A stretch of DNA of 64,000 bases from an uncultured Clostridium sp. (GCA_900555615.1 USMB01000002.1:33230-97229), one strand, 5' to 3'. Shown: positions 5,558 through 64,000, counted from the first letter of the stretch. Numbers and translations are program-made. Notes: a model not told the origin generated them from the sequence alone.

Positions 5558-5639
5558 TATAATAAATGCTTAGATAGTCTAAAGGATAGGTTAAGAGATC
5601 GTTTAAGTTTATTAATTTGTTGATGTTGAGGTGAATGCA

Positions 5640-21087: not shown

Positions 21088-21227
21088 AATTGTAAATTGA
21101 AATACAAAAATAGTGGGCTGATTCTAAATAAACAAATTGTAAAATAATGTAAAAATATATTAAAATTTTAAAAGCCTGAAACCTTAGAAATAAACGGGTT
21201 TGAAGTAAAAATAAAAATAAAAGAAAA

Positions 21228-21254
21228 AAGTGCTAAAAATGGCACTTTTTTTTT
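21228..21254 (+). terminator. Rho-independent terminator (part of the giant-gene 1 upstream cassette)
   Basis: aagtgcta-aaaa-tggcactt stem-loop, then nine T's. Confidence 0.7.
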
Positions 21255-21274
21255 GAAAAAAATCGCGAAAATTG

Positions 21275-21303
21275 TTGAAAAAAAACAGTGATTATGATAT
21301 AAA
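21275..21303 (+). promoter_or_regulatory. Putative promoter of giant gene 1
   Basis: TTGAAA(21275-21280), 17-nt spacer, TGaTATAAA(21298-21303). A second TTGAAAAAAA box sits 23 nt upstream. The whole cassette is duplicated upstream of giant gene 2. Confidence 0.5.
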
Positions 21304-21352
21304 TATATAGAGAAAAATATAAGATTTTTGAAGCAAAAGATGGAGGAAAAAC

Positions 21353-45979: not shown

Positions 45980-46227
45980 ATTGCTGTTTAACTAATTTTT
46001 ATAAAATATACAATAATTGTAAAAAAACTCTTGCTAAATAGAGTAAGACGTGTTATATTAATAATGTACTTGAATTTAGTACAAAACAACTTAGTGTTTA
46101 CACAAAATAAATTTTTGATTTTTTCAGTAATTTTATTCAATTCTAACTGAAGAAAAAATAAGGAAAATAAAGACGTAAAACAGTGGTAAAAAAGCTTGAA
46201 AAATAAATAGAAAAAAACTTAGAAAAA

Positions 46228-46254
46228 AGCACCAAAATTGGTGCTTTTTTTTTT
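46228..46254 (+). terminator. Rho-independent terminator (part of the giant-gene 2 upstream cassette)
   Basis: agcacca-aaat-tggtgct stem-loop, then ten T's. Paralogous to the hairpin at 21228, with complementarity kept on both strands of the stem. Confidence 0.7.
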
Positions 46255-46274
46255 GAAAAAAATGCCGAAAAACG

Positions 46275-46303
46275 TTGAAAAAAATAGCCTGTTATGATAT
46301 AAA
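46275..46303 (+). promoter_or_regulatory. Putative promoter of giant gene 2 (paralogous to 21275-21303)
   Basis: TTGAAA(46275-46280), 17-nt spacer, TGaTATAAA(46298-46303). Upstream TTGAAAAAAA box at 46253. Exactly 25,000 nt downstream of the giant-gene 1 promoter. Confidence 0.5.
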
Positions 46304-46354
46304 TTATATAGATAAATAAAATAGGAGTTATGAGTCAAAAAACGGAGGATAAAC

Positions 46355-49300
46355 ATGTTAAAAAAGAGAAAAAATGTAAGAAAAATAATAGTATTATTAA
46401 TGAGTATAATTTCAATAATAAGTCTTGGTATAAATTTAAATAAAGTAACAAAAGAAAAATATAATCCAGCATTAAATTTATATAATGCTAGTGAAACGAT
46501 AAATATAGACAAAGGTGAAATAGATCCAATATATAGACCAAAGTGGGAAAAAGTATCAAGTTCTTTTAGTGCAGCCAATAAAACACTAACTGTTATAGTA
46601 AAAGGTTCTGCATATGAAAATAAAACAATAGATGCAAATACGCAAATAAAGTATGCAAGTGATGTAATAAGTACTTTAAGTGCATCAAATGTAAAAGTAT
46701 TTATAGATGGAGTAGAGGTAACAAGTACAACAAATCCAACAGTAAAAATAACAGATACTAAAACATCAACAAATACAACATCAGGAAAAAAAGAAGTAAC
46801 ACATACAATTCAGTTATCAAACCTAGAAGAAGCAGTAAGACAAGCAGGAAAAAACTATAAAGAATGGAGTGGAAATATTGCATTAAAAATAACAGGAAGA
46901 GGTCAAGATGAAAGTACATATTCATCAAATGTATTAACAGATGCTGATGGAAATCACAGCATGATGGAAATCCAAGAAGATGGAGCATGGGTAAATATAG
47001 AATTAAAAGATACAAAAACAGACCATAATACAGATAATGTAATGTTTGCGGATTATATAAAACCAGAATTCACATATGTATATGCAGCAAAAGATATAGA
47101 CCATACAAACAAAACATTAACAATAGATTTTTCTATAACAGATAAATATTTTGATAGCACAAAATTGATAACAGATACAAATGGAACATTAACAGCAAAT
47201 CAATCAGTAGTTAATCAAATTACAGTTGCTATGAAAGATGATGCTACAACAGCAGTAAATACTAAAGTAACAAAGAAAATAACCAATATTCAATATATAA
47301 CAGAAAAAAGAGATAATGAGAATGTAAGAATTGGAGCAAAATTTACTTTAGTAATTGGAAATTTACAACAAGAAACATCAAGTGGAAATTATAGAGATTA
47401 CAGTGGCCCAATGAGTATAACATTTCCAAAAGAAATTGCATCAGATAAATCTGGAAATCAAAATGATGCAAAGACAATTACAATAGGTATAGGAGAACCA
47501 AGTAATTCTGGAAGTCAACAAATAGTCGATGTTGTAGACCCAGTATGGAGAGTTGAAAATTTACAAAAAACAGTAAATAGCACAACAGGAAAACTTACAG
47601 CAACAATGGACATATATGGAACAGATAAATATTTTAAGCAAAGTACATTAACAGCTGAACAAATTCAAGTATGGGTAGATGGAGTAAATATTACAGCATC
47701 AGGAAGTACAGCTAAAATTTCTAGAACATTGACAAAAGTAGAAGATTTAACAGAACAAAGAGATGGAAAAACAGTAACATATGGAATTCATTATAAATAT
47801 ACAATAACGGACTTGGAAGAAACTGATGCATTATTTAATGCAGAAAGAGCAAAATATGCAGCTAACACAAGTACTGGTAGAGTATATAGAGAATATTCAG
47901 GAGATATGAGTATTGTAATACCAGCTAATACAATGGTCGACAATTATACAAATACAAATAAAGCTTTAACTTATTCTTTAGGACATATAGATTCAATAAA
48001 ACCAGAAATTATCAAGATATCTTCAACAAGAGATGCAACAAACAAAAAAGAAACGTTTGTATTTGATGTAGTAGATAAATATATTGCAAGTTCAGCATTA
48101 GGAACAACAGTAACAGAAGCAAATAATAACAAATCTAAAGTACATGTATTTGTTGATGGAGAGGCAGCAGATAGTGTAACAAAGAATTATACAAGAGTAA
48201 CTCCGTTATCAGCTAAGATTAATGGAACAAGCAAAGTTGTAGGATATAGATATACATTAGAATTAACAGGATTTGAAAAAGCAAGAACAGCAATTAACTT
48301 TAATAGAGAATATTCTGATTGGAGTGGTAATGTAACATTAGAGATTGATGCAGGGGTTGCAAAAGATACTGCAAATAATTTTAGTGTAAAAACAGTATTT
48401 ACAGGAGATTTTGTAGATTTTATAAAACCAAATGCAACATATCAATATGCAACAGCTGATATAGATCATACAGATAAAACATTTACAATGGTGTTTGATG
48501 TAACAGATAAATTCTACAGTTCAGGAACATTAGCAATAGGAGATTTAACAATTAAGATAGATGGAAAAGATGTAGATTGGAACAAAGTAAGCAAAAGCTT
48601 AACTGTTGCAGATAGACAAAATACTGTAAAAATCACAGAAAACGGAGTAGTAAAAAGTGTAACAAAAACAATTGGTAAACGTTATACATTGAAATTATCT
48701 AATTTGGAGCAAATCCAAACAAGAGATACATCTGGAAATTACATTTCTTACAGTGGTGTAGTTACAGTAGCAATACCAGGAAGTAAGTTTAGTGATACAG
48801 GTGTTGATGGACAAAATACATCTCCAAATAGAAATGATGGAACTACAATAACTTCTGGTATAAATATTCCAGGTGGAAGCGGAACAGGACAAGTAGTCGA
48901 TGTAGTAGATCCATTAGTAGAAAGATTAAATTCATCAGCTAATGCAGTAAATAAAACTGCTACAGTAAAATTCAACATAACAGATAAATATTATGATGCA
49001 ACAAAGGCTGCATTAACACAAAATGATATGAAAGTTCTAGTAAATGGAACAGAAGTTACAGGAAAAATAACAGGATTTTCTACTAAGGCATTAACAGAAT
49101 CAAAAACAACAAATGGTACAACTTCACAAGTACAATACGGAGTTGAGTATACAGTAACAATATCAAACTTTGATACTTCTGCAAATCAAGTATTACTTAG
49201 AATACCACAAGGTAAAGTAATAGACCAATATGGAAACAGTAATAAGCAAACAGATTTGATTTTATACAATGTATTAAAATCAGCAGCATCAGAAGCAGAT

Positions 49301-52300
49301 ACAACAAGCGTATTTTTAGGAGGAAAAATCCAAAGACAGAACATTGAAAATATAACATTTGAAAAAATAATATCAAGTGCAGTGTATAATCATACAACTA
49401 AGGAAATCACAGATACAACAAGAGCATGGGATGTATCAGCACAAGGTGACCAATCTATAGTTGCTTGGTATGTGGACAGTGAAAAAAATGCAAATGGAAT
49501 GTATAAAATTCATATAGCAAATAATAATGTTACAACAATAGCAGCAGATTCAAAAACAACAGATGTAAGTAATAGCATAATATATGCAAACCAAAACTCC
49601 ACACAATTATTCTCATATATAGGTTATGCAACAGGATGTACAGCAACAACAACAATTACTAATTTGAGTTTATTAAATACAACTAGTGTAACAAATATGT
49701 ATAGAATGTTTAGAGGAACTGGATATACCGCAATGACAAAACTAGATTTAGGAGCTTTTGATACAAGCAATGTAACAAATATGTCAGCAATGTTTGAGAC
49801 AACTGGATATACCGCAATGCAAACATTAAATTTAGGAACAAGCTTTAAGACAAATAAGGTTACAAATATGGCATATATGTTCAATGCTTGTGGTGAAACT
49901 GCATTGAAAAGCTTAGATTTAGGCACAAACTTTAATTCAAGTGAAGTAACAAATATGTATAGGATGTTTAGAAGATGTGGATATTCTGCAATGACAAGTA
50001 TTAATTTAAGAAATATGAATACAAGTAAAGTAACAAACATGAGTGGAATGTTTTATGAAACAGGTAGAACTAAATTAACGACCTTAGACCTTGGAACAAA
50101 TTTTAATACAAGTAAAGTAACAAACATGAGTGGAATGTTTAATTGGATGGGGGCATTAACTACTTTAAATTTAAGAGATAAATTTGATACAAGTAATGTA
50201 ACAGATATGAAGAGTATGTTCTGGGGAACAGGATATAGCAATATGACAAGTTTCAGCTTAGGTGATAAATTTAATACAGGTAAAGTAACAGATATGAGTG
50301 GAATGTTTTATGATTTTGCACATAATATTTCAAAACTAGATTTAGGAGATAATTTCTATACAACAAGTGCAACAAATATGACTAATATGTTCTATCAAGC
50401 AGGACAAACTGCAATGACAGTGTTAGATTTAGGACCAGCATTTACAAGAATTGCAGATACTCGTACAAATATGTTCTATAACACAGGAAAATCTGGAAAT
50501 GTAGTTTATGCATCAGAACAAATTTACTTAGATAAAAATAACTTCAAACTAAACACAAGTGTAACAACATCAGCAATAAATTATACAAGAGGAACAATAA
50601 ATCCAAGATATAGAACAGAATGGATAAAACAATCATCACAAATAACAATAGATAGTGCAAATCCAAAAAATAGTAAAATAACAATAACACTAAGAGGTAG
50701 AACAAATGCCGAAGCAGGAAAAGAGTTTACAAGTAATGTAACAAGCTCGTTAACACAAAGTCAAATAAATGACCAAATAAAAGTATTTATAGATGGCAAA
50801 GAGGCAACAACAATAACCAAAACAATAGGAAATGCAACAGCAGATACTAATGCTACAACAGGAGCAAGTGATGTAGTTCAAGTATTAACAATAACAAATT
50901 TCCAAGAAGCTGCAAGACAAAGTGGAAAAAGCTACAAAGAGTGGAGTGGTAATATTTCATTAAAGATAGCTAAAAAGACATTAACAGATACTAAATATTC
51001 AAACCAAAACTTAAGTGCAATAGACACAACAGGAACAATGACAGACATAGTTTTAGCTGGAACAGGAACTGAAAAACAAAATGATACAACAAGTACTTCT
51101 ACAATGTTTACTGACTTTGTAAAGCCAGAGTTTAATTATTTATCATCAGAAACTACAATAAATCATGATACAAAAACAGTTACAATATTGTTCAGTGTAA
51201 GAGATAAATATTTTAGCAATTCAGGATTAACAGCAGATACAACAGCATCTAAAATTTCAGTAACAGTTGCTGATGAAGAGATAAATAGTAAGATAACTAA
51301 GAAACTAGAAGTTGTTGAAGAAGAAAAAGATACAGTAAATGGAAAGAACAAAAAAGTTGGAGAAAAATATAGATTAACAATAACAGGACTAGACCATAAA
51401 GATGGAACTCATTACAGTGGAATAATGCAATTAGGATTTGCAAAAGACTTAGTAGCAGACTTTTCTGGAAACAAAAATGATTCACAAACAATAACAATAG
51501 GAGTAGACACACCAAATGGAACAGGCTCTGGAACAATAGTTGATGTTGTAAGTCCGGTATGGTCAATAGCTAGCACAAATGCTATAACTGGAGTTATAAA
51601 ATTAAGAGTAACAGATAAATATTTGGTAAAAGCAGATAGTATATTTGCATTAACTAAAGATAGTATTAAAGTAATAGTAAATGGTGTTGAATCAACAACA
51701 ATTGAAAAATCGTTATCAGGACCAACAGAGATTACAGCTAATCAAGTATATGAATATACTTTAACATTATCAAATATAGAACCAAGTGATGGAGGTTATA
51801 CAGAATTTACACCAATTGACCCAATAGTAGGAGGAACAGCAAAATATAGAAATGAAAATGGTGGAGATGTTAAATTAAGAATTGTTGCTGGAACAGTAAC
51901 AGATAAATATGGAAACAAAACATTACAACAAGATTTAGTAGTTGGAAGTTTGGATAATACAAAACCAGAAGTATATTATGTTCAAACAACTAGAGATAAT
52001 ACAAATCATAAAGCAACTATAGTATTTAATGTAACAGATAAAAACTATTATTCATCTAAGATTATAGGAACAGATGAAATGTCAATTTGGATGGATGGAA
52101 CACAAATTGATTCAAATATAACAAAAACAATTACTAAAAAAGTAGAGATAAAAACTACAATTGACAATAAAACAAAAGTAGTTGGACATCAATATACATT
52201 AGAAATAAATAAACTTAGAGAAACAGACCAAACATTTATAAATTCAGCTAGAAGTTATAGAGAATATAGTGGTACTTTACAAGTAAAAATTAATCCAACA

Positions 52301-55300
52301 GCAGCAAGAGATATTAAAGGTAACACAATAAATCAAAATACAGCAACATTATCATCATTTGTTGATACATTAAAACCAGAAGTGGTATATAAATATTCAT
52401 CATCAGATATAAATAAAGAAAATAAAACATTTTCAATGACTTTTGATATTGTAGACAAATATTATAATTCAGCAAGCTCAAGTGCAATATCTATAAGTGA
52501 TTTAGCAATTAGAATTGATGGAAAAGAACCAGATTGGTCAAAAGTAACAAGAACACTAACTCCAACAGGAGGAGACGATATAACAGCAACAAATATAAGC
52601 TATACAGATAATGGAACTATAAAGACAGGAAATAAAGTAGTTGGAAAACGTTATACGTTAACATTATCTAATCTAGAGCAACTTCAAACTAAAGATATTT
52701 CTGGAAATTATATAGAATATAGTGGTGTGGTTTCAGTAGTAATTCCACAAAACAAAGTTGCTGATATAGGAACAACAGGAGATAAAACAAATTTAAATAA
52801 AAATATTACAACAACAATTACATCTGGTATTAGTCTTCCAGGAGGTTCTGGAAATGATCAGGTAGTCGATGTTGTAGATCCATTAGTTGAGAAAATAACT
52901 TCTTCAGCTAGTGCAGTTAATAAAACAGCATCAGTTAACTTTAAGATAACTGATAAGTATTTTGCAAAAAGTACATTGACACAAAATAATATAAAAGTTT
53001 TAGTTAACGGAACAGAAGTTACAGGAAAAATAACAGGATTTACAAGTAAAGAATTAAAAGAAGATAGAACTTCAGGTTCAACAACAACTCAATTTCAATA
53101 TGGTGTTGAATATACAGTAAATGTTGGTGGATTTGATTCAAATGTTAACCAAGTTATAGTTAGAATTCCTCAAGGAGTTGTAACAGATACATCTGCAAAT
53201 GGTAATAAACAAACAGATTTAGTATTGTATAATGTATTAAAGAAAACAGATACAGAGTCAGCTATTACAAGTGTATTTTTAGGTGGTAAAATACAAAGAC
53301 AAAATATTTATAATATAACATTTGAAAAAGTTATTCCAAATTCAGTATACAATCATGCTACTAAAAAGATTTCAGATACAACAAGAGCATGGGATGTATC
53401 AGCACAGGGAGACCAATCTATAGTTGCTTGGTATGTTGATAGTGAAATAAAGAATAGCACTTATAAAATTCATATAGCAACTAATAGCCAAGTTCCAGGA
53501 CAAACAACTGTAGGAAATAATGAGATATTTGCAAATGTTAATTCATCAAGATTATTCCAAAACATAGGATATTCAACAAATTGTACAGCAACAGAGGTAA
53601 TTACAAATCTTAATTTATTAGATACAGCTAGTGTAACAGACATGAGATGGATGTTCCAGTATACAGGTTATAATGCAATGAAAAAATTAGACTTAAGTAG
53701 CCTAGATACAAGAAATGTAACTCTTATGAGTGCAATGTTTTATGGAACAGGATATAAGGCAATGGACACCTTAACTTTTGGAACGAACTTTAATACAAGC
53801 AAAGTTACAACAATGGAATATATGTTCTATGAAACAGGTTATACAGCAATGCAAACTCTAAATTTAGGAAGTAACTTTAATACAAGTAAAGTAACAAATA
53901 TGCAATATATGTTTAGAGATTGTGGACATGATGCATTAACTGCTTTAGACTTAGGAAGTAACTTTGATACAAGCAAAGTAACAAATATGGATAGTATGTT
54001 CTATAGAGTTGGTTTTGCAAAACTAGAAACATTAAACTTAGGCAACAATTTTAATACAATTAAAGTAACAAGTATGGGTGGAATGTTTGCTGGAGTAGGA
54101 CAAACCTCTCCATTAAAAACATTAGACTTAGGAAAGAATTTTGATACAAGAAATGTAACAAACATGAGTTATATGTTCCATTGCACAGGAACTTCGGGAA
54201 TGACAAGTTTAGACTTAGGAGATAAATTCTATACAACAAGTGCAACAAATATGCAGAACATGTTCTATCAATTAGGAACAAATGCGATGACCTTATTAGA
54301 TTTAGGACCAGCATTTACAAGAATTGCTGATTCTTATACAGATATGTTTACAAATGCAGGAAAATCTGGAGAAATGAAAATTTATGCATCAGAGCAAATT
54401 TATTTGGATAAAAATAATTTCAAACTAAATACAAGTGCAACAGAATCAGCAATAAGTTACACAAGAGGAACAATAAATCCAAAATACAGAACAGAATGGG
54501 TAAAAGAAAGCTCATCAATAAGTACAGCTAATAAAAATATAACAATTACATTAAGAGGTAGAACAAATTCAGAAGCAGGGGTAGACTTTACAAGTAATGT
54601 AACAAGTTTATTAACACAAAATCAAATTAATGATCAAATAAAAGTATTTGTAGATGGAAAAGAAGCAACAAGTATAACCAAAACAATTGCTACAGCTACA
54701 ACAGATAAAAATGCTGTAACAGGAGCAAATGATGTAATACAAGTATTAACATTATCAAATTTTGAAGAAACAGCTAGACAAAGTGGAAAGAGTTACAAAG
54801 AATGGAGTGGTAACATTTCATTAAAGATAGCTAAAAAGACTTTGACAGATGAGACATATTCAAACCAAAACTTAAGTGCAATAGACACAACAGGAACAAT
54901 GACAGATATAGTTTTAGCAGGAACTGGAACAGAAAATAAAAATAATACAACAAGTACATCAACAATGTTCACAGACTATATAAAACCAGAGTTCACATAT
55001 AGTTTCTCAACAGGAAATATAAATTATATAGATAAAACATTAACAGTAGACTTTACTGTAACAGATAAATATTTCGAAAGTACAATATTAAAAACAGATA
55101 CAACAGCTCAAAATATTACATTAAAACTAAAAGATGATGAAACAGCACCAGTAAACAGTAATGTAACAAAAGAATTGAAATATGTTTCAGACGTAATGGA
55201 TACAGTAAATGGAAAATCTGTAAAAGTTGGAGAAAAATATAAATTAGTAGTAAAAGGATTAGAGCAAAAGACATTAAATGGAGATTACAAAAACTACAGT

Positions 55301-58300
55301 GGTCCAATGAGTATATCATTCCCAGCAGGAACAATAAAAGATACATCAGGAAACTTAAGTGATGCAAAGACAATCACAATAGGTGTAAATGAACCAGATA
55401 ATACTGGAACAGATAAAATTGTCGATGTTGTAGATCCAATGTGGAGAACAGATAATATAAACATAGACTATACAAATAAACAAGTAACAGTAGATTTAAT
55501 AGGAACCGATAAATATTATGCAAGCAATAGCCTAACAACAGATAAAATTAAAGTTTTAGTTGACGGAGAAGAAGCAACAAGCATAAAGAAAACATTAAGT
55601 ACTGCTAGTACAATTCAATATGGAGTTAAATACACATTAACACTTTCAAATTGGGAAGAAAGTACAAAACAATCTGGAAAACAATTCTTTGAATGGAGTG
55701 GTACAACAAAGATTGAAATTGCAGCAGATACATTAAAAGATGAATCAAATAACACAAGTAATAAACAACAATTTACATTAGGGCATGTAGACTTTATAAA
55801 ACCAAAAATTGAAAGAGTATCATCAACAAAGAATGCAAGCAACAAGACAGAAACAATAGTGTTTAATGTAATTGATAAATACTTAGATGTAACAGATTTA
55901 GTTACAGAAAGTGATATTTCAGTATATGTAGATAATGAATTAGCTTCACAAATAAGCAAGAAATTAACAAAAGTATCTGATATATCAGGAACTGTAAATG
56001 GAGTATCTAAAGTAGTTGGACATCAATATCAATTAGTATTAAGTAACTTTGAGCAAAAGAGAACAGCAATTAACTACAACAGAGAATATTCTGATTGGAG
56101 TGGCAATGTAAAAATCAAGATTGCTAAAGATGCTGTAAAAGATACAAATACACCAACACCTAATAAAAATGATGAAACAGAAATTGCAGGAGAATTTATT
56201 GATTTTATAAAACCAAATGCAACATATCAATATTCATCATCAAATATAGATTATAATGGAAAAACATTTACAATGGTATTTGATATAACAGATAAACACT
56301 ATAGTTCAGCTACATTAGCATTAAGTGATTTAACTATTAGAATAGATGGCGAAGAACCAAATTGGGATGATACAGGAGTTCATGGAGTAATTAAACAACT
56401 TACTATTATAGATAGGACTAATACTGTAAATGGCCAAACACAAACAATTGGTAAACGTTATACCTTAAAACTTTCTCATTTAGAGCAATTAGAAAAATTG
56501 GCAGGAAAAGAAACAATGGATTACAGTGGTGTAATTACAGTTGCAATTCCTAAAGATAAGGTAGCAGATACTTCTGAAAATAAAAATGATGCTTTAACTA
56601 TTACTTCTGGTATAGAAGTTAAAGGTGAAACAGGAAAAGGAGAGATAGGACTTCCTGCTAATAATACAGTAATGGCTATAGGAACTAACCCTGGAGGAAG
56701 CAGTGCTAGTAGTAGTTTTGCAAATATGAATGTTTATGCATTAGAAATTTCTAATGAAACAGGAATAATAGGAAAATATGATGCTACAAATAATACTGGA
56801 AATGGACATAGTAACTCTACAACAACATGGAAAGACCTAAATGGAAGCAATAATGGTACAATTAATGGAGCAATTTGGGGAAATAATTATTTAAAATTTG
56901 ACGGAGTAAATGATTGGGTAAACCTAGGCCAAATGAGCTTTACTAATTATGCAAGTTTAGATATAACAATGTCAATAGATAAAGTTCAAAGTGGTGAGGT
57001 TGATCTTGTTTCAAACTTTGAAGATGGCGGTATAGGAATATACTTAATGAATGGCGTACCAAGATTTTCTATATATAGTAAAAATTTGAATAAATATATA
57101 GAAATTAGTGCAGACACAGCCTTAACAGTTGGTGAAAAAACAAATATTAAAGGTATATATGATGGAAATAACTTATACTTATATATAAATGGAAATCCAG
57201 TAACAGGAACTGTAGTAGACGTTGTAGACCCAATATGGGAAAGAGTAAGTTCATCAGCAAGTGCCGCAAATCAAACAGCTACAATTACAGTAAGAGGAAC
57301 AGATAAATATTTTGCAAGCAGTGCTTTAACAGCAGATAAGATAAAAATTCTTATAAATGGAAAAGAAGTTTCAACAAATGTTTCAGTAAATGTTGGAACG
57401 GCAACACCAGTATATTCAGCAGATGGAACAACAAGAATAGGAGACCAATATACAATAACACTTAGTGGTTCTGGATTACCTAAAGATACTAACCAAATTA
57501 AAGTTCAAATCCAAGAATGTGCATTAACAGATACTTCTGGAAATAAGAATAAAGCAACAGATTTGATAGTATTTAATGCATTAGCAAAGACAGATACAGA
57601 AACAAGTGCAACAAGTGGATTCTTAGGAAGTGCAAGTAGTGCTAATACAAAAGTAAAAACAATCCAAAGACAGAACATTGACAATGTAACATTTGTAGAT
57701 AATATACCTTCAACAGTATATGATAAATCAGCACAAGCATATGTTGATGATAAAGCATGGGATGTTTCAGCAATGCAAGATAAGTCAATTTTAGCTTGGT
57801 ATACAACAAATGCTAATGGAAGTTTAAAAGTTTACATTGGTAGTGATAATGAAATATTTGGAAATTATAATTCTAGCTATTTATTTAAATATATTGGATA
57901 TTCAGACAAGTGTACTTCAGCAGAGACGATTACTAATATTAATTTATTAAATGTAAGCAGTGTAACAAATATGAGAGGAATGTTCTGGATGACTGGATGG
58001 AGAAGCATGAAAAAATTAGAGCTAGGAGCTAATTTTGATACAAGTAATGTAACAAGTATGTTATGTATGTTTGGAGAAACAGGAAAACAAGCTATGACAA
58101 CTTTAGACTTAGGAAGCAAGTTCTATACAAGTAAAGTTACTGATATGAGCTATATGTTTAGTCAAGCAGGATGGGTTGCAATGACAAGCTTGAATTTAGG
58201 TGGAAACTTCAATACAGTTAGTGTAACTAATATGAATAATATGTTTAGTAATACTGGACATGAGGTATTGACAACTTTAAATTTGGGCGGAAACTTTAAT

Positions 58301-61300
58301 ACAAGTAATGTAACAGACATGGCACATATGTTTGAAGCTACAGGATATAAGGCAATGACAGGCTTAGATTTAGGTGAAAAATTTAATACAAGTAGTGTAA
58401 CAAATATGAATAGTATGTTTGAAGAAACAGGATATACAGCAATGACAAGCTTAGATTTAGGTGGCAATTTTAATACAGTTAAGGTAACAAATATGAATGC
58501 AATGTTCTATAGAACTGGTCGCACAGCAATGACAACATTAAATTTAGGAAGCAATTTTGATACAACAAATGTAACAGATATGAGATCAATGTTTAATGAA
58601 ACTGGATTCACAGCAATGACAAAATTGGACTTAGGTGATAAGTTTAATACAAGTAAAGTAACTAATATGTACAGAATGTTCTTTAATACAGGGGCAACTC
58701 AAATGACATTATTAGATTTAGGACCAGCATTTACAAAGATAGCAGATGGAAACATTACTATAGATTCAAATACACTTAAAGCATATTCAGAGATGTTCAC
58801 ATATACTGGAAAAAATAATGCAATAACAATTTATGCATCAGAACAAATTTACTTAGACAAAAACAACTTCAAGTTAAACACAGATGCAACAAGTTCTGCA
58901 ATAAACTACACAAGAGGAACAATAAATCCAAGATATAGAACAGAATGGATAAATGAAAACTCAAAAATAACAATAGATACAGCAAATCCAAAGAACAGTA
59001 AAATAACAATAACATTAAGAGGTAGAACAAATGCAGAAGCAGGAGTAGACTTCACAAGTAATGTAACAAGTTCATTAACACAAGCAAAACTAAATGATCA
59101 AATTCAAATATTTATAGATGGTGAGCAAGTTGATGGACTAACTAAAACAATAGGAGATGCAACAGTAGTAAAAAATGCAGTAACAGGAGCAAATGATGTA
59201 ACACAAGTATTAACATTATCAAACTTTGAAGAATCAGCAAGACAAAGTGGAAAGAACTTCAAAGAATGGAGTGGTAATATAATATTAAAGATAGACAAAA
59301 AGACATTAAAAGATGACAAATATGGAAACCAAAACTTAAAGGCAATAGACACAACAGGAACAATGCAAGACATTGTAATACAAGGAACTGGAACAGAAAC
59401 AAGCAATAATACAACAAGTACAACAACAATGTTTACAGATTACATTAAGCCAGAATTTACATATGAATATGCAAATACTCAAATAGACTATGACAAAAAG
59501 ACTGTAACAGTGGTATTTGATGTAACTGATAAATATTTTAAACAATCAACAGTATCTTTAGACAATACAACAATAAAAGTTGATGGAAAAGATGTAGATT
59601 GGACAAAAGTAAATAAAACATTAGCAAAAAAGAAAACAAATGCAGACCAAAAAGTTGGAGAAATCGTTTATAAAACAGATGGAACAATCTGGTACCCAGT
59701 AAATGGTAAATTACAACAAATTGGTGAGAGATATGAACTTATAGTAAGTGGTTTAGAAACAAAGAATGGTGAAGGTTACAGTGGTACAATGACATTAGCA
59801 TTTCCAAGTGGAATTGTAACAGACCAATCAAATAATTCAAACTCTGCAAAAACTATAACACTTGGTATAGATGACCCAGAAAATCATGGAGACCACAAAG
59901 ACCCAATAGTAGTCGATGTTGTAAATCCATTATGGAGTTATGGAACAAGTAGTATAAACAGAGTAAGAAATGGAGCAACAGCAGATACAGTAGACCTAAC
60001 AATTATCGGAAGTGATAAGTATTATAAAGCAAATACATTAACAGAAGATAAGATAAAGGTATATGTAGATGATAAATTACAAGTTTCAATAACTAAAAAG
60101 TTAACTCAAATAACAGATACAGCAACATTAAAGAAATTAGCTACAAAACAAGGATTAGCAGATATAAATAACTTGAAATTTACAGGATATAAGTTAACTC
60201 TAGGAAATTTCGGAACAATAAACGGAGTTACAAAGATTGTAATAGATGCTGGAACAATCCAAGACGAAAGTGGAAATAAGAATATAGAAACAACGATAAA
60301 TGTTGGAAATATAGAATGGATTGAAAATGGAGATAGCAGTACAAATCAAAAATATCCAGCATTCAGAAATAGTATTGTAGACTTCATAAAACCAGTAATC
60401 AAATACAAATATTCAGCTGTAGAAGGAGCAAGAAATCCTGATATAGATTATGAAGCGAGAACATTAACAGTTAAATTTACGGTAACAGATAAATATTTAC
60501 GCGAAAGTACAATAATAAAAGCAGATGGAACATTAAATACAGATGCAGTAAAGATTAAAGTTGCTGGAACAGATTTAACAACTCAATTACATACAGTAAT
60601 TACTTCAGCAGATATTACAGATGGAAAAGAATATACATTAGTAATATCAAACTTTGAATTAGTATATAACACTGGAAAAGGATATGAAGACTATAGTGGT
60701 GAGGTACAATTAGTATTTGAAGCAAATAAGATTGATGATACATCAGGAAACAAAAATGATGCAACAACAATTACAATTGACACAGATGATGGAGATGATC
60801 CAGACCATTCAATAATAGTCGATGTAATTGACCCATTAATAGAAAAAACAAAAGATAGCTTAAGTGTTAGAAATGCTCAAAATAATATTGTAAGAGACTT
60901 AAATACAGAAACAGGTGTAGTATCAGTAGAAATAAGAGCAACAGATAAATACTTAAAATCTGGAACACTTGAAAACGTTGCAGAACAAATTAAAGTAATG
61001 ATGATAAAACCAGGAACAACAGAAAAGGTTGAAGTTCCAACAATCAAGAAAACTGTAACAAAATTAAGACAACAAGCAACATTGATTGATTATAAAATTA
61101 CATTAAGCAACTTTGAAAGAAACGAAGGAATAACAAGTATTGTAATTCCAAAAGGAGTAATCAAAGATACATCAGAAAATGGAAATAAAGAAACAGAATT
61201 ATTAGTAGGAAATGCAACATGGGTTGAAGTTGGAGATTCAAAAGGAGAATATACAGCATTTAGAGATAGTATTATAGATGTAACTAGACCAACATGGAAC

Positions 61301-64000
61301 TATGCAACAAGTAGTATTACAAGAGATAGAGATGGCGAAACAGGAACAGTAACAATAAAAATACTAGGAAAAGATACATATTACTTAAAAGATACATTAA
61401 CAACAAATGACATTAGCGTATATGTAGCAAATAGCGAAAATCCAGAAGAACCAATAACAACAATAACTAAGACATTAACAAAAATTACAGACACAGCTCA
61501 ACTTGAAGGAGCAGATACAGGATATACATTAACATTAGGAAACTTTGGAAAATATGATGGAAAAGTAAAAATTAAAATTGATGCAGATACAATCAAAGAT
61601 ACATCAGGAAATGGAAACAAAGAAACAGAAATTTCAGTAGGAAATAGCAAATGGGTAGAAACTGATGTTGGTGATAGTTCTACAAATCCTAAATATACAG
61701 CATTTAGAAACAGTATTGTAGACTTTATAAAACCAATAATCATATATCAATATGAAGATGGAGTAAACCCAGTAATAGACCGTGATAACAAGAAAGTATC
61801 AATATCATTTAATGTAACAGATACAAATTTCTTAGAAAGTAATATCACAGCATCAGATATTAGAGTTCTTGTAGATGATATGGAAGTTACAGATTCTATA
61901 ACAAAAAAACTAGAAAAATCAGATATAAAAGATACTACAGATACAAATAAGAAGAATGGAGTTAAATATACATTAACATTATCAAACTTCGAATTAGACC
62001 AAAACTTAGAAGATGAAATCTTCAGAAGACATAGTGGAAAAATCGAATTAATAATTGCTAAAGATAAAGTAAGAGATACATCTGGAAACGGAAATATCGA
62101 AACAAGCATAATAGTTGATAATGAAAATGGTGATGATGAAAATAACTTTATAAATGTAGACTTTGTAAAACCAAAGATATTCTATGACAGTAAATTCATT
62201 AGTTGGGATAATAGGTATGCAGAGGTAACAATAAAGGGAACAGATAGATTCTATGACTTTAATACAAAATTGGAACCAGAAGATATTAAATTATATCAAC
62301 AAAATGATAATGGAGATTACATAGAGGTTACTAATTTACCTGTAACTATAAAATCTGTAAAAAATAAATATGGATATGACTTTGTTATCAGATTAGGAGA
62401 ATTTGAAGAAGAATACAAGATGAAGATTGTAATAGCAGCTGGCAAAATTTCAGATTCATCTGGAAATGTAAACGAAGAAACAGAAATTATAGTTGGATTA
62501 GATAATAAGAAACCAATATGGAAATATATCAGTACAGATACTTCAAAATTTGAGACAGATGGTAAAATAAGCTTTACAGTTAAAGGTCAAGATAAATTCT
62601 TGAATTTAACAAAGAGCGGATTACAAGATTCTAATATGAAAATTTATAAAGATGGAGTAGAATTAACAGACAGTGTTGGAATTACAGTAAATTACTTAGG
62701 ACAAGATACGACTGAAAAATCAAAATCTTATAAAATTGATATAACAGGATTAAAAGAAATTGGCTCTTATTCATTAGTATTTGAAGAAAAAACATTAATT
62801 GATGAGTTTGATAATGAAAGTAATGCAACAACAATAAGCTTCTCTAAATCAGCAATTTCATCAAATACAAATAATTACACAGCAGTAACATACCATGCAA
62901 GCCATGACTTTGAATTAATGCATCAAGCATATGTACATGAATTGATGAGTGTAAATAAAACTGGAAAGAACTCAGAAAGCAAGACATATAGAGCAAGTTC
63001 AGTTGGAGAAATTTATAAAAATGTTGGAAACACAACATTTGCAGAACCATTTACATATACAAATGGAACACAATCAGCTTATAGCTTTAAAGGATGGGGT
63101 GTAGCAAATGAAAATGGACATTTAGTAGATGACCAAGGAACAATTTTAACAGATGAATCAAAAGCAACAATATATGGATTATATGATGAAATTCCAGAGA
63201 CAGTTACAAATTTGAAAGCAATATGGCAAAAAGCGACAGTAATCTTTGTGTCAAAGAATGGAAATAACGCAAACAACGGATTTTCACCAGAGACACCAGT
63301 TAAAGATATAAAGACAGCATATAGCAAATTAAGTGCTTCTGGAACAATGAAAACAAATGTAATTGTTATTATGGATGCAATTGAATGGAATAGCAGTGAT
63401 GTTTTAACAGGAAATGCAACAATAACAAGTTTATATGCAGGAGTTGATTATACAAACAAAGGTGCAGAGTTAAAGATTAGTTCTAATATGCAAATAAATG
63501 GTAATGTAATGTATGATGATATTAAGTTATATTCAAATTCTACAACAGTAAGTGATGGTAGTGATTATTTAGCAAATGGTTCATATAACAACATGTTAAT
63601 TACAAACTATGGAAATGTAGTTTTAGGAAGAGGAATAATAACACCAAATGGAAAATATACATTTGGAGCAGTAATTGGAGGAGAATATAGGCAAGAGACA
63701 AAGACAGGTTCAATTGGAATTCATACAGTAATAGTAGAAGCTGGTAAATACAATGATATAGTAATTGGAAGTGCTTTGGGCTCAGGCGGACAATCAATAA
63801 AACCTAAATATGTTTCTCATCAAATAACTATAGGAACTATGAAAGAAGCGGCAATATCAAGAAATAGTCGTGTAACAATAACAGGTTACTTGAGCATGGG
63901 AGAACTAGAAGATAGATGTTATCCATATAAGACTTCTGGAAATCAAGAAACAAGTTCTTCATATAGTAGAACATATTCAATAACAAGATTATATAGTGCA
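46355..64000 (+). CDS. Second giant modular surface protein, paralog of 21353-45919 (at least 5,882 aa, 3' end beyond the window)
   Basis: ATG at 46355 after GGAGGA. Frame (position mod 3 = 2) was checked by hand at 49.6 kb, 58.0 kb and 63.96 kb, with stops in the other frames. No + strand ORF with a stop is listed anywhere in 46-64 kb. N-terminus MLKKRKNVRKIIVLLMSIISI matches the MLKNKIIVKKIRNILILFMAI of gene 1. Same domain types. Confidence 0.8.
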   Translation, partial: MLKKRKNVRKIIVLLMSIISIISLGINLNKVTKEKYNPALNLYNASETINIDKGEIDPIYRPKWEKVSSSFSAANKTLTVIVKGSAYENKTIDANTQIKYASDVISTLSASNVKVFIDGVEVTSTTNPTVKITDTKTSTNTTSGKKEVTHTIQLSNLEEAVRQAGKNYKEWSGNIALKITGRGQDESTYSSNVLTDADGNHSMMEIQEDGAWVNIELKDTKTDHNTDNVMFADYIKPEFTYVYAAKDIDHTNKTLTIDFSITDKYFDSTKLITDTNGTLTANQSVVNQITVAMKDDATTAVNTKVTKKITNIQYITEKRDNENVRIGAKFTLVIGNLQQETSSGNYRDYSGPMSITFPKEIASDKSGNQNDAKTITIGIGEPSNSGSQQIVDVVDPVWRVENLQKTVNSTTGKLTATMDIYGTDKYFKQSTLTAEQIQVWVDGVNITASGSTAKISRTLTKVEDLTEQRDGKTVTYGIHYKYTITDLEETDALFNAERAKYAANTSTGRVYREYSGDMSIVIPANTMVDNYTNTNKALTYSLGHIDSIKPEIIKISSTRDATNKKETFVFDVVDKYIASSALGTTVTEANNNKSKVHVFVDGEAADSVTKNYTRVTPLSAKINGTSKVVGYRYTLELTGFEKARTAINFNREYSDWSGNVTLEIDAGVAKDTANNFSVKTVFTGDFVDFIKPNATYQYATADIDHTDKTFTMVFDVTDKFYSSGTLAIGDLTIKIDGKDVDWNKVSKSLTVADRQNTVKITENGVVKSVTKTIGKRYTLKLSNLEQIQTRDTSGNYISYSGVVTVAIPGSKFSDTGVDGQNTSPNRNDGTTITSGINIPGGSGTGQVVDVVDPLVERLNSSANAVNKTATVKFNITDKYYDATKAALTQNDMKVLVNGTEVTGKITGFSTKALTESKTTNGTTSQVQYGVEYTVTISNFDTSANQVLLRIPQGKVIDQYGNSNKQTDLILYNVLKSAASEADTTSVFLGGKIQRQNIENITFEKIISSAVYNHTTKEITDTTRAWDVSAQGDQSIVAWYVDSEKNANGMYKIHIANNNVTTIAADSKTTDVSNSIIYANQNSTQLFSYIGYATGCTATTTITNLSLLNTTSVTNMYRMFRGTGYTAMTKLDLGAFDTSNVTNMSAMFETTGYTAMQTLNLGTSFKTNKVTNMAYMFNACGETALKSLDLGTNFNSSEVTNMYRMFRRCGYSAMTSINLRNMNTSKVTNMSGMFYETGRTKLTTLDLGTNFNTSKVTNMSGMFNWMGALTTLNLRDKFDTSNVTDMKSMFWGTGYSNMTSFSLGDKFNTGKVTDMSGMFYDFAHNISKLDLGDNFYTTSATNMTNMFYQAGQTAMTVLDLGPAFTRIADTRTNMFYNTGKSGNVVYASEQIYLDKNNFKLNTSVTTSAINYTRGTINPRYRTEWIKQSSQITIDSANPKNSKITITLRGRTNAEAGKEFTSNVTSSLTQSQINDQIKVFIDGKEATTITKTIGNATADTNATTGASDVVQVLTITNFQEAARQSGKSYKEWSGNISLKIAKKTLTDTKYSNQNLSAIDTTGTMTDIVLAGTGTEKQNDTTSTSTMFTDFVKPEFNYLSSETTINHDTKTVTILFSVRDKYFSNSGLTADTTASKISVTVADEEINSKITKKLEVVEEEKDTVNGKNKKVGEKYRLTITGLDHKDGTHYSGIMQLGFAKDLVADFSGNKNDSQTITIGVDTPNGTGSGTIVDVVSPVWSIASTNAITGVIKLRVTDKYLVKADSIFALTKDSIKVIVNGVESTTIEKSLSGPTEITANQVYEYTLTLSNIEPSDGGYTEFTPIDPIVGGTAKYRNENGGDVKLRIVAGTVTDKYGNKTLQQDLVVGSLDNTKPEVYYVQTTRDNTNHKATIVFNVTDKNYYSSKIIGTDEMSIWMDGTQIDSNITKTITKKVEIKTTIDNKTKVVGHQYTLEINKLRETDQTFINSARSYREYSGTLQVKINPTAARDIKGNTINQNTATLSSFVDTLKPEVVYKYSSSDINKENKTFSMTFDIVDKYYNSASSSAISISDLAIRIDGKEPDWSKVTRTLTPTGGDDITATNISYTDNGTIKTGNKVVGKRYTLTLSNLEQLQTKDISGNYIEYSGVVSVVIPQNKVADIGTTGDKTNLNKNITTTITSGISLPGGSGNDQVVDVVDPLVEKITSSASAVNKTASVNFKITDKYFAKSTLTQNNIKVLVNGTEVTGKITGFTSKELKEDRTSGSTTTQFQYGVEYTVNVGGFDSNVNQVIVRIPQGVVTDTSANGNKQTDLVLYNVLKKTDTESAITSVFLGGKIQRQNIYNITFEKVIPNSVYNHATKKISDTTRAWDVSAQGDQSIVAWYVDSEIKNSTYKIHIATNSQVPGQTTVGNNEIFANVNSSRLFQNIGYSTNCTATEVITNLNLLDTASVTDMRWMFQYTGYNAMKKLDLSSLDTRNVTLMSAMFYGTGYKAMDTLTFGTNFNTSKVTTMEYMFYETGYTAMQTLNLGSNFNTSKVTNMQYMFRDCGHDALTALDLGSNFDTSKVTNMDSMFYRVGFAKLETLNLGNNFNTIKVTSMGGMFAGVGQTSPLKTLDLGKNFDTRNVTNMSYMFHCTGTSGMTSLDLGDKFYTTSATNMQNMFYQLGTNAMTLLDLGPAFTRIADSYTDMFTNAGKSGEMKIYASEQIYLDKNNFKLNTSATESAISYTRGTINPKYRTEWVKESSSISTANKNITITLRGRTNSEAGVDFTSNVTSLLTQNQINDQIKVFVDGKEATSITKTIATATTDKNAVTGANDVIQVLTLSNFEETARQSGKSYKEWSGNISLKIAKKTLTDETYSNQNLSAIDTTGTMTDIVLAGTGTENKNNTTSTSTMFTDYIKPEFTYSFSTGNINYIDKTLTVDFTVTDKYFESTILKTDTTAQNITLKLKDDETAPVNSNVTKELKYVSDVMDTVNGKSVKVGEKYKLVVKGLEQKTLNGDYKNYSGPMSISFPAGTIKDTSGNLSDAKTITIGVNEPDNTGTDKIVDVVDPMWRTDNINIDYTNKQVTVDLIGTDKYYASNSLTTDKIKVLVDGEEATSIKKTLSTASTIQYGVKYTLTLSNWEESTKQSGKQFFEWSGTTKIEIAADTLKDESNNTSNKQQFTLGHVDFIKPKIERVSSTKNASNKTETIVFNVIDKYLDVTDLVTESDISVYVDNELASQISKKLTKVSDISGTVNGVSKVVGHQYQLVLSNFEQKRTAINYNREYSDWSGNVKIKIAKDAVKDTNTPTPNKNDETEIAGEFIDFIKPNATYQYSSSNIDYNGKTFTMVFDITDKHYSSATLALSDLTIRIDGEEPNWDDTGVHGVIKQLTIIDRTNTVNGQTQTIGKRYTLKLSHLEQLEKLAGKETMDYSGVITVAIPKDKVADTSENKNDALTITSGIEVKGETGKGEIGLPANNTVMAIGTNPGGSSASSSFANMNVYALEISNETGIIGKYDATNNTGNGHSNSTTTWKDLNGSNNGTINGAIWGNNYLKFDGVNDWVNLGQMSFTNYASLDITMSIDKVQSGEVDLVSNFEDGGIGIYLMNGVPRFSIYSKNLNKYIEISADTALTVGEKTNIKGIYDGNNLYLYINGNPVTGTVVDVVDPIWERVSSSASAANQTATITVRGTDKYFASSALTADKIKILINGKEVSTNVSVNVGTATPVYSADGTTRIGDQYTITLSGSGLPKDTNQIKVQIQECALTDTSGNKNKATDLIVFNALAKTDTETSATSGFLGSASSANTKVKTIQRQNIDNVTFVDNIPSTVYDKSAQAYVDDKAWDVSAMQDKSILAWYTTNANGSLKVYIGSDNEIFGNYNSSYLFKYIGYSDKCTSAETITNINLLNVSSVTNMRGMFWMTGWRSMKKLELGANFDTSNVTSMLCMFGETGKQAMTTLDLGSKFYTSKVTDMSYMFSQAGWVAMTSLNLGGNFNTVSVTNMNNMFSNTGHEVLTTLNLGGNFNTSNVTDMAHMFEATGYKAMTGLDLGEKFNTSSVTNMNSMFEETGYTAMTSLDLGGNFNTVKVTNMNAMFYRTGRTAMTTLNLGSNFDTTNVTDMRSMFNETGFTAMTKLDLGDKFNTSKVTNMYRMFFNTGATQMTLLDLGPAFTKIADGNITIDSNTLKAYSEMFTYTGKNNAITIYASEQIYLDKNNFKLNTDATSSAINYTRGTINPRYRTEWINENSKITIDTANPKNSKITITLRGRTNAEAGVDFTSNVTSSLTQAKLNDQIQIFIDGEQVDGLTKTIGDATVVKNAVTGANDVTQVLTLSNFEESARQSGKNFKEWSGNIILKIDKKTLKDDKYGNQNLKAIDTTGTMQDIVIQGTGTETSNNTTSTTTMFTDYIKPEFTYEYANTQIDYDKKTVTVVFDVTDKYFKQSTVSLDNTTIKVDGKDVDWTKVNKTLAKKKTNADQKVGEIVYKTDGTIWYPVNGKLQQIGERYELIVSGLETKNGEGYSGTMTLAFPSGIVTDQSNNSNSAKTITLGIDDPENHGDHKDPIVVDVVNPLWSYGTSSINRVRNGATADTVDLTIIGSDKYYKANTLTEDKIKVYVDDKLQVSITKKLTQITDTATLKKLATKQGLADINNLKFTGYKLTLGNFGTINGVTKIVIDAGTIQDESGNKNIETTINVGNIEWIENGDSSTNQKYPAFRNSIVDFIKPVIKYKYSAVEGARNPDIDYEARTLTVKFTVTDKYLRESTIIKADGTLNTDAVKIKVAGTDLTTQLHTVITSADITDGKEYTLVISNFELVYNTGKGYEDYSGEVQLVFEANKIDDTSGNKNDATTITIDTDDGDDPDHSIIVDVIDPLIEKTKDSLSVRNAQNNIVRDLNTETGVVSVEIRATDKYLKSGTLENVAEQIKVMMIKPGTTEKVEVPTIKKTVTKLRQQATLIDYKITLSNFERNEGITSIVIPKGVIKDTSENGNKETELLVGNATWVEVGDSKGEYTAFRDSIIDVTRPTWNYATSSITRDRDGETGTVTIKILGKDTYYLKDTLTTNDISVYVANSENPEEPITTITKTLTKITDTAQLEGADTGYTLTLGNFGKYDGKVKIKIDADTIKDTSGNGNKETEISVGNSKWVETDVGDSSTNPKYTAFRNSIVDFIKPIIIYQYEDGVNPVIDRDNKKVSISFNVTDTNFLESNITASDIRVLVDDMEVTDSITKKLEKSDIKDTTDTNKKNGVKYTLTLSNFELDQNLEDEIFRRHSGKIELIIAKDKVRDTSGNGNIETSIIVDNENGDDENNFINVDFVKPKIFYDSKFISWDNRYAEVTIKGTDRFYDFNTKLEPEDIKLYQQNDNGDYIEVTNLPVTIKSVKNKYGYDFVIRLGEFEEEYKMKIVIAAGKISDSSGNVNEETEIIVGLDNKKPIWKYISTDTSKFETDGKISFTVKGQDKFLNLTKSGLQDSNMKIYKDGVELTDSVGITVNYLGQDTTEKSKSYKIDITGLKEIGSYSLVFEEKTLIDEFDNESNATTISFSKSAISSNTNNYTAVTYHASHDFELMHQAYVHELMSVNKTGKNSESKTYRASSVGEIYKNVGNTTFAEPFTYTNGTQSAYSFKGWGVANENGHLVDDQGTILTDESKATIYGLYDEIPETVTNLKAIWQKATVIFVSKNGNNANNGFSPETPVKDIKTAYSKLSASGTMKTNVIVIMDAIEWNSSDVLTGNATITSLYAGVDYTNKGAELKISSNMQINGNVMYDDIKLYSNSTTVSDGSDYLANGSYNNMLITNYGNVVLGRGIITPNGKYTFGAVIGGEYRQETKTGSIGIHTVIVEAGKYNDIVIGSALGSGGQSIKPKYVSHQITIGTMKEAAISRNSRVTITGYLSMGELEDRCYPYKTSGNQETSSSYSRTYSITRLYSA
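49670..50500 (+). repeat. DUF285/BspA-like repeat block 1 (giant gene 2)
   Basis: ~26-aa ...VTNM..MF..TGY.AMT.L.LG.NFNTS.. units. Confidence 0.55.
53620..54370 (+). repeat. DUF285/BspA-like repeat block 2 (giant gene 2)
   Basis: As above. Confidence 0.55.
56640..57200 (+). other. LamG-like (concanavalin-A-like lectin/jellyroll) domain inserted in giant protein 2
   Basis: GNNYLKFDGVNDWVNLGQMSFTNY.SLDITMS..KVQSGEVDLVSNFEDGGIGIYLMNGVPRFSIY...LYLYINGNPV is a typical Laminin_G_3-like pattern. It is absent from every other module in either gene. Confidence 0.45.
57950..58820 (+). repeat. DUF285/BspA-like repeat block 3 (giant gene 2)
   Basis: As above. Confidence 0.55.

Follow-up and report, generated by a model that had tools for sequence, protein, structure and literature searches.

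The 64,000-nt stretch of chromosomal DNA considered here (the window; GCA_900555615.1 USMB01000002.1:33230-97229) derives from an uncultured Clostridia lineage of the human gut, a spore-forming Firmicute with low GC (~30%). It carries two giant genes arranged head to tail on the + strand, which is the strand of every feature given below. Gene 1 (21353-45919) encodes 8188 aa, and gene 2 (46355-64000), its paralogue of the same family, is a partial coding sequence of at least 5882 aa whose 3' end lies beyond the window. Three stretches of gene 2, here called copies A, B and C, closely resemble one another, and the locus raises the question of what these stretches are and why they are alike. The sequence-only reading of the window took them for near-identical tandem super-repeats created by recent intragenic duplication. 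This observation is partly confirmed, being real but overstated. It is likely that the similar stretches are the joints between units of a giant modular cell-surface protein, and that they reflect old duplications, purifying selection and occasional gene conversion.

The copies are marked by a 39-nt anchor, ACAAGAGGAACAATAAATCCAARATAYAGAACAGAATGG, which has exact matches in gene 2 at 50585, 54461 and 58910 only, against a chance expectation of 0 (100 shuffles). A fourth site, with 3 mismatches, is found in gene 1 at 37703. The middle position had been placed correctly from the sequence, while those given for A and C (50581 and 58901) were off by 4 and 9 nt. All three copies lie within the single open frame of gene 2 and all encode the peptide pattern previously quoted for them. 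Their spacings are 3876 nt (A-B) and 4449 nt (B-C), rather than a period of 4.2-4.4 kb. A, B and C are the most similar paralogous stretches inside gene 2, but the 600 nt 3' of the anchors, described earlier as near-identical (85-90%), are 82.2% (A-B), 79.7% (A-C) and 79.5% (B-C) identical. The best 780-nt codon-aligned block gives 82.5%, 78.3% and 78.3% for the same pairs, and the longest exact runs common to the blocks are 51, 44 and 28 nt. In a sliding profile, an identity of 0.90 is attained by single 120-nt intervals only, and raised identity is confined to ~0.83 kb per copy (~50270-51100 for A), with a sharp drop at ~51100. Global alignment of whole units gives 66-67% identity among units 1-3 and 52-55% between these and unit 4. 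What had been described as near-identical repeats of ~4 kb are similar 0.8-kb blocks inside diverged units of 3.9-4.4 kb. Only the whole units fall to the ~70% level at which ordinary paralogous modules had been placed, the 0.8-kb block (~80%) remaining above it.

The position of these blocks becomes clear from the architecture of gene 2, which is composed of large tandem units, as the sequence-only reading held. Each unit (~1300-1500 aa) comprises a head, which is a beta-sandwich domain, followed by a run of ~110-150-aa immunoglobulin-like (Ig-like) modules and a capped leucine-rich-repeat (LRR) array of the DUF285/PARCEL type. The joint consists of the C-terminal cap (C-cap) of the LRR array, a linker and the head of the next unit. 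Unit 1 (46511-50584) has an N-terminal head, an Ig-like array and a DUF285/PARCEL LRR array with its end-cap, as assigned from PF03382 and the paralogue map. Unit 2 (50585-54460) begins at anchor A and matches TIGR02167 (PARCEL) at 82.7 bits (cut-off 30). Unit 3 (54461-58909) begins at anchor B and contains a ConA-like insertion, while unit 4 (58910-64000) begins at anchor C, has no LRR array in the window and runs into the C-terminal region. Junction block A (50375-51154, identity being raised from ~50270) spans the last LRR and the C-cap, the linker ...IYASEQIYLDKNNFKLNT..SAINY and the head TRGTINPRYRTEW...KPEF. Junction block B (54248-55015) is 82.5% identical to A in nucleotides and 78% in amino acids, and junction block C (58664-59479) is 78.3% identical in nucleotides to both. 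The LRR arrays that precede the blocks were delimited with Tandem Repeats Finder at 49676-50141 (5.4 copies; also matched by PF03382), 53735-54077 and 58031-58723, each with an 87-nt (29-aa) period.

A hidden Markov model (HMM) built from the three heads was searched against both giant genes. Gene 2 yields four full heads (aa 53, 1411, 2703 and 4186, the first match extending over aa 53-241) and gene 1 another four (aa 3412, 4265, 5452 and 6992), and the Ig-like modules between heads are matched weakly. Gene 1 stops right after an LRR C-cap, and in gene 2 the first head comes behind a leader that is charged and hydrophobic, so that a unit resembles a whole mature protein. PF03382 scores 184 and 107 bits on the two halves of gene 2 (cut-off 25). 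In searches of both giant genes with Pfam and NCBIfam, DUF285 (PF03382) and PARCEL (TIGR02167) are the only families found, the head, the Ig-like modules and the C-terminal region matching none.

The joint is old. Its motif, ...IYASEQIYLDKNNFKLNT...TRGTINPKYRTEW...LRGRTN...GK.YKEWSGN, shows little or no variation in 11 short database fragments from other metagenomes, the yield of a word-indexed protein search that returned no giant protein, and is repeated every ~2.5-6 kb across 49 gut Clostridia genome loci. An exhaustive profile search, in which the LRR columns of the profile inflate the number of matches, returns full-length joint matches in dozens of 50%-identity clusters, among proteins of 2600-7740 aa, so the head-Ig-LRR architecture is widespread. 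The relatives are metagenome-assembled genomes (MAGs) labelled uncultured Clostridia, from human and chicken guts, one of them a closed chromosome of 1.55 Mb; their loci are denoted here by L and their proteins by P. Blocks compared across species and positions are 72-78% identical in nucleotides, against 78-82.5% among A, B and C, a gap of 3-7 points. By the Nei-Gojobori method (NG86), the synonymous divergence (dS) between A, B and C is 0.44-0.54, with a ratio of non-synonymous to synonymous divergence (dN/dS) of 0.33-0.41. The positional orthologues of two species, L006 and L009, have a dS of 0.22-0.42. Since the paralogues of the window exceed this value, the copies are not recent, contrary to what had been supposed. 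Of all parts of the unit, the joint appears to be under the strongest constraint, whichever of the timescales examined is considered.

We propose three causes for the likeness of A, B and C. Old tandem duplications would have given rise to the units and would carry the most weight, followed by strong constraint on the joint. Occasional conversion, the third and least of the causes, would have partly evened out the joints within the genome. An alternative does without this last step: purifying selection acts on an old joint, and the clustering of joints by genome reflects independent duplications in separate lineages. We consider this unlikely, though it has a genuine minor chance of being right. 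The block is conserved across the whole family, as constraint alone would have it, and unit number really differs between lineages. Divergent patches seen among strains (described below) derive from orthologous alleles and not from paralogues. Further, in a neighbour-joining tree of 34 blocks each L006 copy pairs with the L009 copy at the same position (100% bootstrap support). In the same tree, however, A, B and C form their own clade (96.5%), and the copies of L014 (98.5%) and L015 (99.5%) likewise group by genome. The unit bodies of the window are nonetheless colinear orthologues of those of L009, at 68.7% over 6.5 kb and 73.2% over 10.5 kb (window 46223-52463 and 53633-63930). The paralogous joints of the window (78-82.5%) are moreover more alike than positional orthologues between the window and L009 (73-75%). 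Bodies that are colinear with L009 and joints that form their own clade point to homogenisation confined to the joints, after that split and long ago. There is therefore some support for occasional gene conversion having partly homogenised the joints within the genome, the last event being old (dS ~0.45-0.5).

A conversion-like tract of 456 nt adjoins the joint at head A, which likewise speaks against constraint as the sole cause. It is the Ig-like module directly 3' of head A (51107-51562; 152 aa), which sequence comparison shows to be 91.9% identical to positions 42797-43252 of gene 1. The modules of gene 1 had been described as much more diverged; this is true of the head blocks, which are 63-67% identical between the two genes in nucleotides and 35-42% in amino acids, but not of this adjoining module. 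The two copies of the tract have 37 differences in 456 nt, with 16 synonymous and 16 non-synonymous codon differences. The edges are sharp, and what they enclose is precisely one module of 152 aa (FxDFxKPEF...DVVxPVW). In other strains, too, the copy in gene 1 and that in gene 2 are ~92% identical, so the exchange predates the divergence of the strains. A donor was sought among the orthologues, none of which exceeds 70% identity to either copy. Taken together, the pattern indicates inter-gene conversion or module transfer, and it is the latest exchange in the locus.

Between species, the number of units varies. Direct orthologues were identified for gene 1 (L047 and L048, the latter colinear with it) and for gene 2 (L009, L006, L011, L013 and L007). 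Gene 2 orthologues have two heads in L007 and L005, three in L011, four in the window and L009, and at least five in L015. L007, and independently L005, consists of the N-terminal head, the unit-3 body, a head and unit 4. The window has an extra ~2.6 thousand aa relative to L007, with breakpoints at aa ~271 (the end of the N-terminal head) and ~2874 (the end of head B). Breakpoints at head ends would fit in-register homologous recombination. In L015, a stretch of 20.8 kb contains five joints, and two units of the unit-3 type follow one another there. In L011 (1-6100) the upstream gene instead ends with the orthologue of the unit-1 body, which is followed by a genuine stop (5795), a terminator and a conserved promoter cassette; the gene boundary therefore differs between species relative to the units. 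Because the joints stay alignable, they may have served as in-register recombination points, at which whole units would have been gained or lost over species divergence and not within the present species. The variation in module number that had been anticipated between strains is thus seen between species instead (two to at least five heads), the contigs of strains being colinear.

Two features of these orthologues may be noted separately. The ConA-like insertion of unit 3 (~56630-57206) is a block of ~190 aa for which no internal paralogue exists, and its Laminin_G_3/ConA-like match in Pfam is weak (E 2e-4, below the cut-off). L009 and L011 have this block; L004, L006, L007 and L010 lack it. 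In L009, a frameshift in an A-run at ~5600-5625, within an LRR, splits the gene 2 orthologue into products of 1247 aa and 6279 aa (P0018). Either an error in the MAG or a genuine site, possibly phase-variable, may account for it.

Several points weigh against the explanation that we favour. A dN/dS of 0.33-0.41 denotes moderate constraint only, and the ages are relative only, because the AT-rich codon bias compresses the dS that NG86 gives. The genome-wise clustering of joints could stem from lineage-specific unit duplications instead of conversion, and the argument to the contrary uses body colinearity with one or two MAGs. The unit counts of the species also come from MAGs that are possibly misassembled or frameshifted (L009, L004 and L007), the two-head layout being the only one found in two independent assemblies (L005 and L007). 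An AlphaFold2 model of the joint and head has a beta-sandwich core (residues ~80-175) with a predicted local distance difference test score (pLDDT) of 70-90, but it is poor outside this core and its mean pLDDT is 59.6. A Foldseek search of the PDB with this model gives no match at E < 1e-3, and generic beta-sandwich matches only, at E > 0.01.

A further reading, which we regard as quite unlikely, makes the giant genes polyprotein-like in-frame concatenations. Each unit would approximate a complete mature surface protein, and the joint would be a functional connector that is interchangeable with a gene boundary. Units would be fused, split and moved between neighbouring genes, with the LRR arrays as strain-specific cassettes, and the product would perhaps undergo processing at the ...NNFKLNT / ...TRGTINP... 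joint, which is invariant. The concatenation reading is compatible with the end of gene 1 at a C-cap, with the homology of the N-terminal head of gene 2, behind the leader, to the internal heads, and with the placement of the unit-1 body in the upstream gene of L011. If it is true, strain-specific LRR cassettes would imply that several binding modules of a single protein are under diversifying selection.

Returning to old, conserved joints as the preferred explanation, we can compare strains within the species. Public metagenome contigs scanned with the anchor yielded 39 loci, and the contigs identical or near-identical to the window come from human-gut metagenomes. Contigs that match the window at 95-99.7% identity come from ~10 other human-gut samples, and every one is colinear with it through A, B and C. 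L067 is 99.5% identical over window 46103-55274, L073 98.0% over 46103-58526 and L078 98.7% over 54224-63960, with the same order and spacing in each, and L087 and L090, from separate samples, agree. Length differences among the strain contigs are small only. From A to B, L067 and L084 have the 3876 nt of the window, L073 has 3861 nt and L062 has 3948 nt; from B to C, L078 has 4449 nt; and head B may be longer by 15 nt. Colinearity across the copies means that no polymorphism in unit number exists between these strains.

The blocks are, further, among the least polymorphic stretches along gene 2. In all nine of the strains that cover it, block A is 99-100% identical, against 94-98% for its flanks. 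Head B contains a 65-nt dimorphic patch with a 15-nt indel (54500-54560), of which L080, L087 and L090 carry the long form. This form resembles A and C but is identical to neither, differing from the current A and C at ~12-14 of ~68 positions; the patch is among the observations in keeping with some conversion between joints. The only real strain-level change in repeat number seen in the locus concerns gene 1. Strain L001, 99.9% identical to the window, has an extra 333-nt (111-aa) tandem Ig-like module there (window 24968-25318; L001 9653-10336), the two copies matching at 317 of 333 positions, and its gene 1 product is 8299 aa instead of 8188 aa.

These data bear on the proposal that a recent intragenic duplication makes gene 2 a present hotspot for unequal recombination, strain size variation and misassembly, which we now think very improbable. 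The three blocks are indeed the closest paralogues in gene 2 and cluster together, and gene 1 has gained its 333 nt at the strain level. Large duplications of recent date are also found elsewhere in the family: in P0012, from another metagenome, multi-domain stretches of several hundred aa are duplicated internally without a single difference. In gene 2, however, a dS of 0.44-0.54 exceeds that of orthologues in two species, and the copies of other species are already 72-78% identical. Similarity of ~80% covers only 0.8 kb of units that are otherwise 66-67% identical, and the population comparison finds the same-species metagenomes colinear throughout. The supposed assembly hazard is likewise not borne out, because the shared exact runs are at most 51 nt and independent short-read assemblies cross all three copies. 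That the repeat layout of the window is itself a chimera or collapse is hardly credible. In its favour are the metagenomic source, the frequent misassembly of giant repetitive genes and the frameshifts of related MAGs, but L067, L073, L078, L087 and L090 give the same order and spacing from separate samples, and the frame is open over 17.6 kb.

The variable parts of gene 2 are the adjoining LRR arrays, and not the flagged blocks to which antigenic variation had been ascribed. Two LRR stretches are hypervariable between strains that are otherwise 95-100% identical: at 54000-54400, L062 and L073 fall to 68-78% identity, and at 57600-58600, L080 and L090 fall to 68-82%. The segment 56800-57000 is also swapped for a divergent allele in some strains. 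In the LRR stretch before block C, the divergent patch is 84% identical to the orthologous site of L007, compared with 72% to the window, and divergent patches are also 81% identical to the orthologous sites of L066 and L086. Paralogous donors, as in intragenic conversion, were considered and rejected for these patches. Their nearest relatives are orthologous sites of other species, so what is seen is allelic replacement. This suggests that the LRR arrays act as allelic cassettes under diversifying selection or inter-lineage recombination.

Among the systems described previously are the PARCEL/DUF285 (BspA-type LRR) surface proteins (Roske et al. 2010, PMC2996958). Their repeats undergo reshuffling inside a genome, and close relatives carry different ones; the DNA that encodes them has dyad symmetry, found as statistical palindrome motifs (PMC2996958). 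A scan of 58000-58760 for inverted repeats of at least 12 nt (seed 7) found none, although such a simple scan is not equivalent to the published method. Like these proteins, gene 2 has tandem repeats of ~25-29 aa that match PF03382 and TIGR02167 above their cut-offs, and variable hydrophilic positions. PARCEL proteins also carry a membrane-targeting leader, for which the N-terminus of gene 2 is a candidate. In contrast, the LRR arrays of gene 2 are only one component of units of 1300-1500 aa, in proteins of at least 5900-8200 aa, and the flagged segment is an array C-cap with an unrecognised head rather than an array.

The size-variable adhesins of Gram-positive cocci (alpha C/Rib, Esp/Bap and Ebh) are large secreted proteins with tandem Ig-like modules. 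Their repeats are near-identical in DNA, and in-frame changes in repeat number arise between strains by homologous recombination. Compared by description, the giant genes share with them the large size, the Ig-like modules and, in gene 1, a strain difference of one 333-nt unit. The units (66-67%) and joints (78-82.5%) of gene 2, however, lie below ~90% DNA identity, and its unit number is constant across ~10 other strains. No LP.T[GAN] sortase motif occurs in the open reading frame of the L007 orthologue, the sole sequence scanned; this frame may end in a frameshift, and the C-terminus of gene 2 lies outside the window. The product of gene 2 would be a surface protein, possibly an adhesin, presenting several variable LRR binding modules on Ig-like stalks.

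Giant genes as such are not new. Bee-associated Lactobacillus kunkeei is reported to possess a cluster of them (PMC4494060). A survey of giant genes reported proteins of 10,000-85,000 aa, with LRR domains on giants of Clostridia (West-Roberts et al. 2023, bioRxiv 10.1101/2023.11.21.568195). Gene 2 resembles the giants of both in being very large, repeat-rich, probably surface-exposed and from host-associated Firmicutes known mostly from metagenomes, but those of the survey carry other domain sets. We came across no account in the literature of units with the head-Ig-LRR architecture or of the conserved joint. The closest relatives form an unnamed family in gut Clostridia MAGs (L006-L054; P0012-P0060), with which gene 2 shares the joint motif, unit order and unit spacing. 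Membership is apparent from the recurrence in gene 2 of the LRR C-cap, the NNFKLNT linker and the TRGTINPxYRTEW head. Within the family, species differ in unit number, in the ConA-like insertion and in where the gene boundary falls among the units.

Upstream of the giant genes are rlmD, serS and genes for a U32 peptidase, MurC (murC) and a SipL/LysM protein; one same-species contig also has spoVG and yunB upstream. The gene 2 frame is open from 46334 to the end of the window (17.6 kb), with an ATG at 46355 behind a GGAGGA ribosome-binding site. Its N-terminus, MLKKRKNVRKIIVLLMSIISIISLGI..., has a charged n-region and a hydrophobic core, as judged by inspection, and is likely to be a signal or anchor peptide. 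The regions upstream of gene 1 (21200-21399) and gene 2 (46196-46401) are paralogous and 78% identical, and the same region is conserved in a second species (L011 5890-6040). In gene 2, a hairpin followed by a T-run (46223-46252) precedes TTGAAA...TATGATATAAA and the GGAGGA. These upstream regions may constitute a shared regulatory cassette. At its other end, the window stops at a point aligned with residue 4726 of 6279 in P0018, so ~1550 aa of gene 2 are missing. The C-terminal region, mostly beyond the window, turns into repeated GxxYGG motifs (window 63000-64000; L007 14000-16384; P0018 4700-6279), which are suggestive of a beta-helix; the region has no Pfam family match.

The finding is real but fairly ordinary: the joints are old and stable, and not recent and strain-variable. 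As the copies are too diverged to collapse and independent assemblies agree, the gene model can be trusted. An abundant uncultured human-gut Clostridia lineage carries two adjacent giants (8188 aa and at least 5882 aa), and at least one related MAG has a chromosome of only 1.55 Mb. Both giants belong to a widespread, unannotated family of modular proteins. Within these proteins the joints are the stable element, and what evolves are the LRR arrays, by allelic replacement between strains, and single Ig-like modules, as in the exchange between gene 1 and gene 2 and the 333-nt gain in gene 1. For studies of host or phage interaction, or for strain typing, it is the LRR arrays and not the flagged repeats that would be the informative target.

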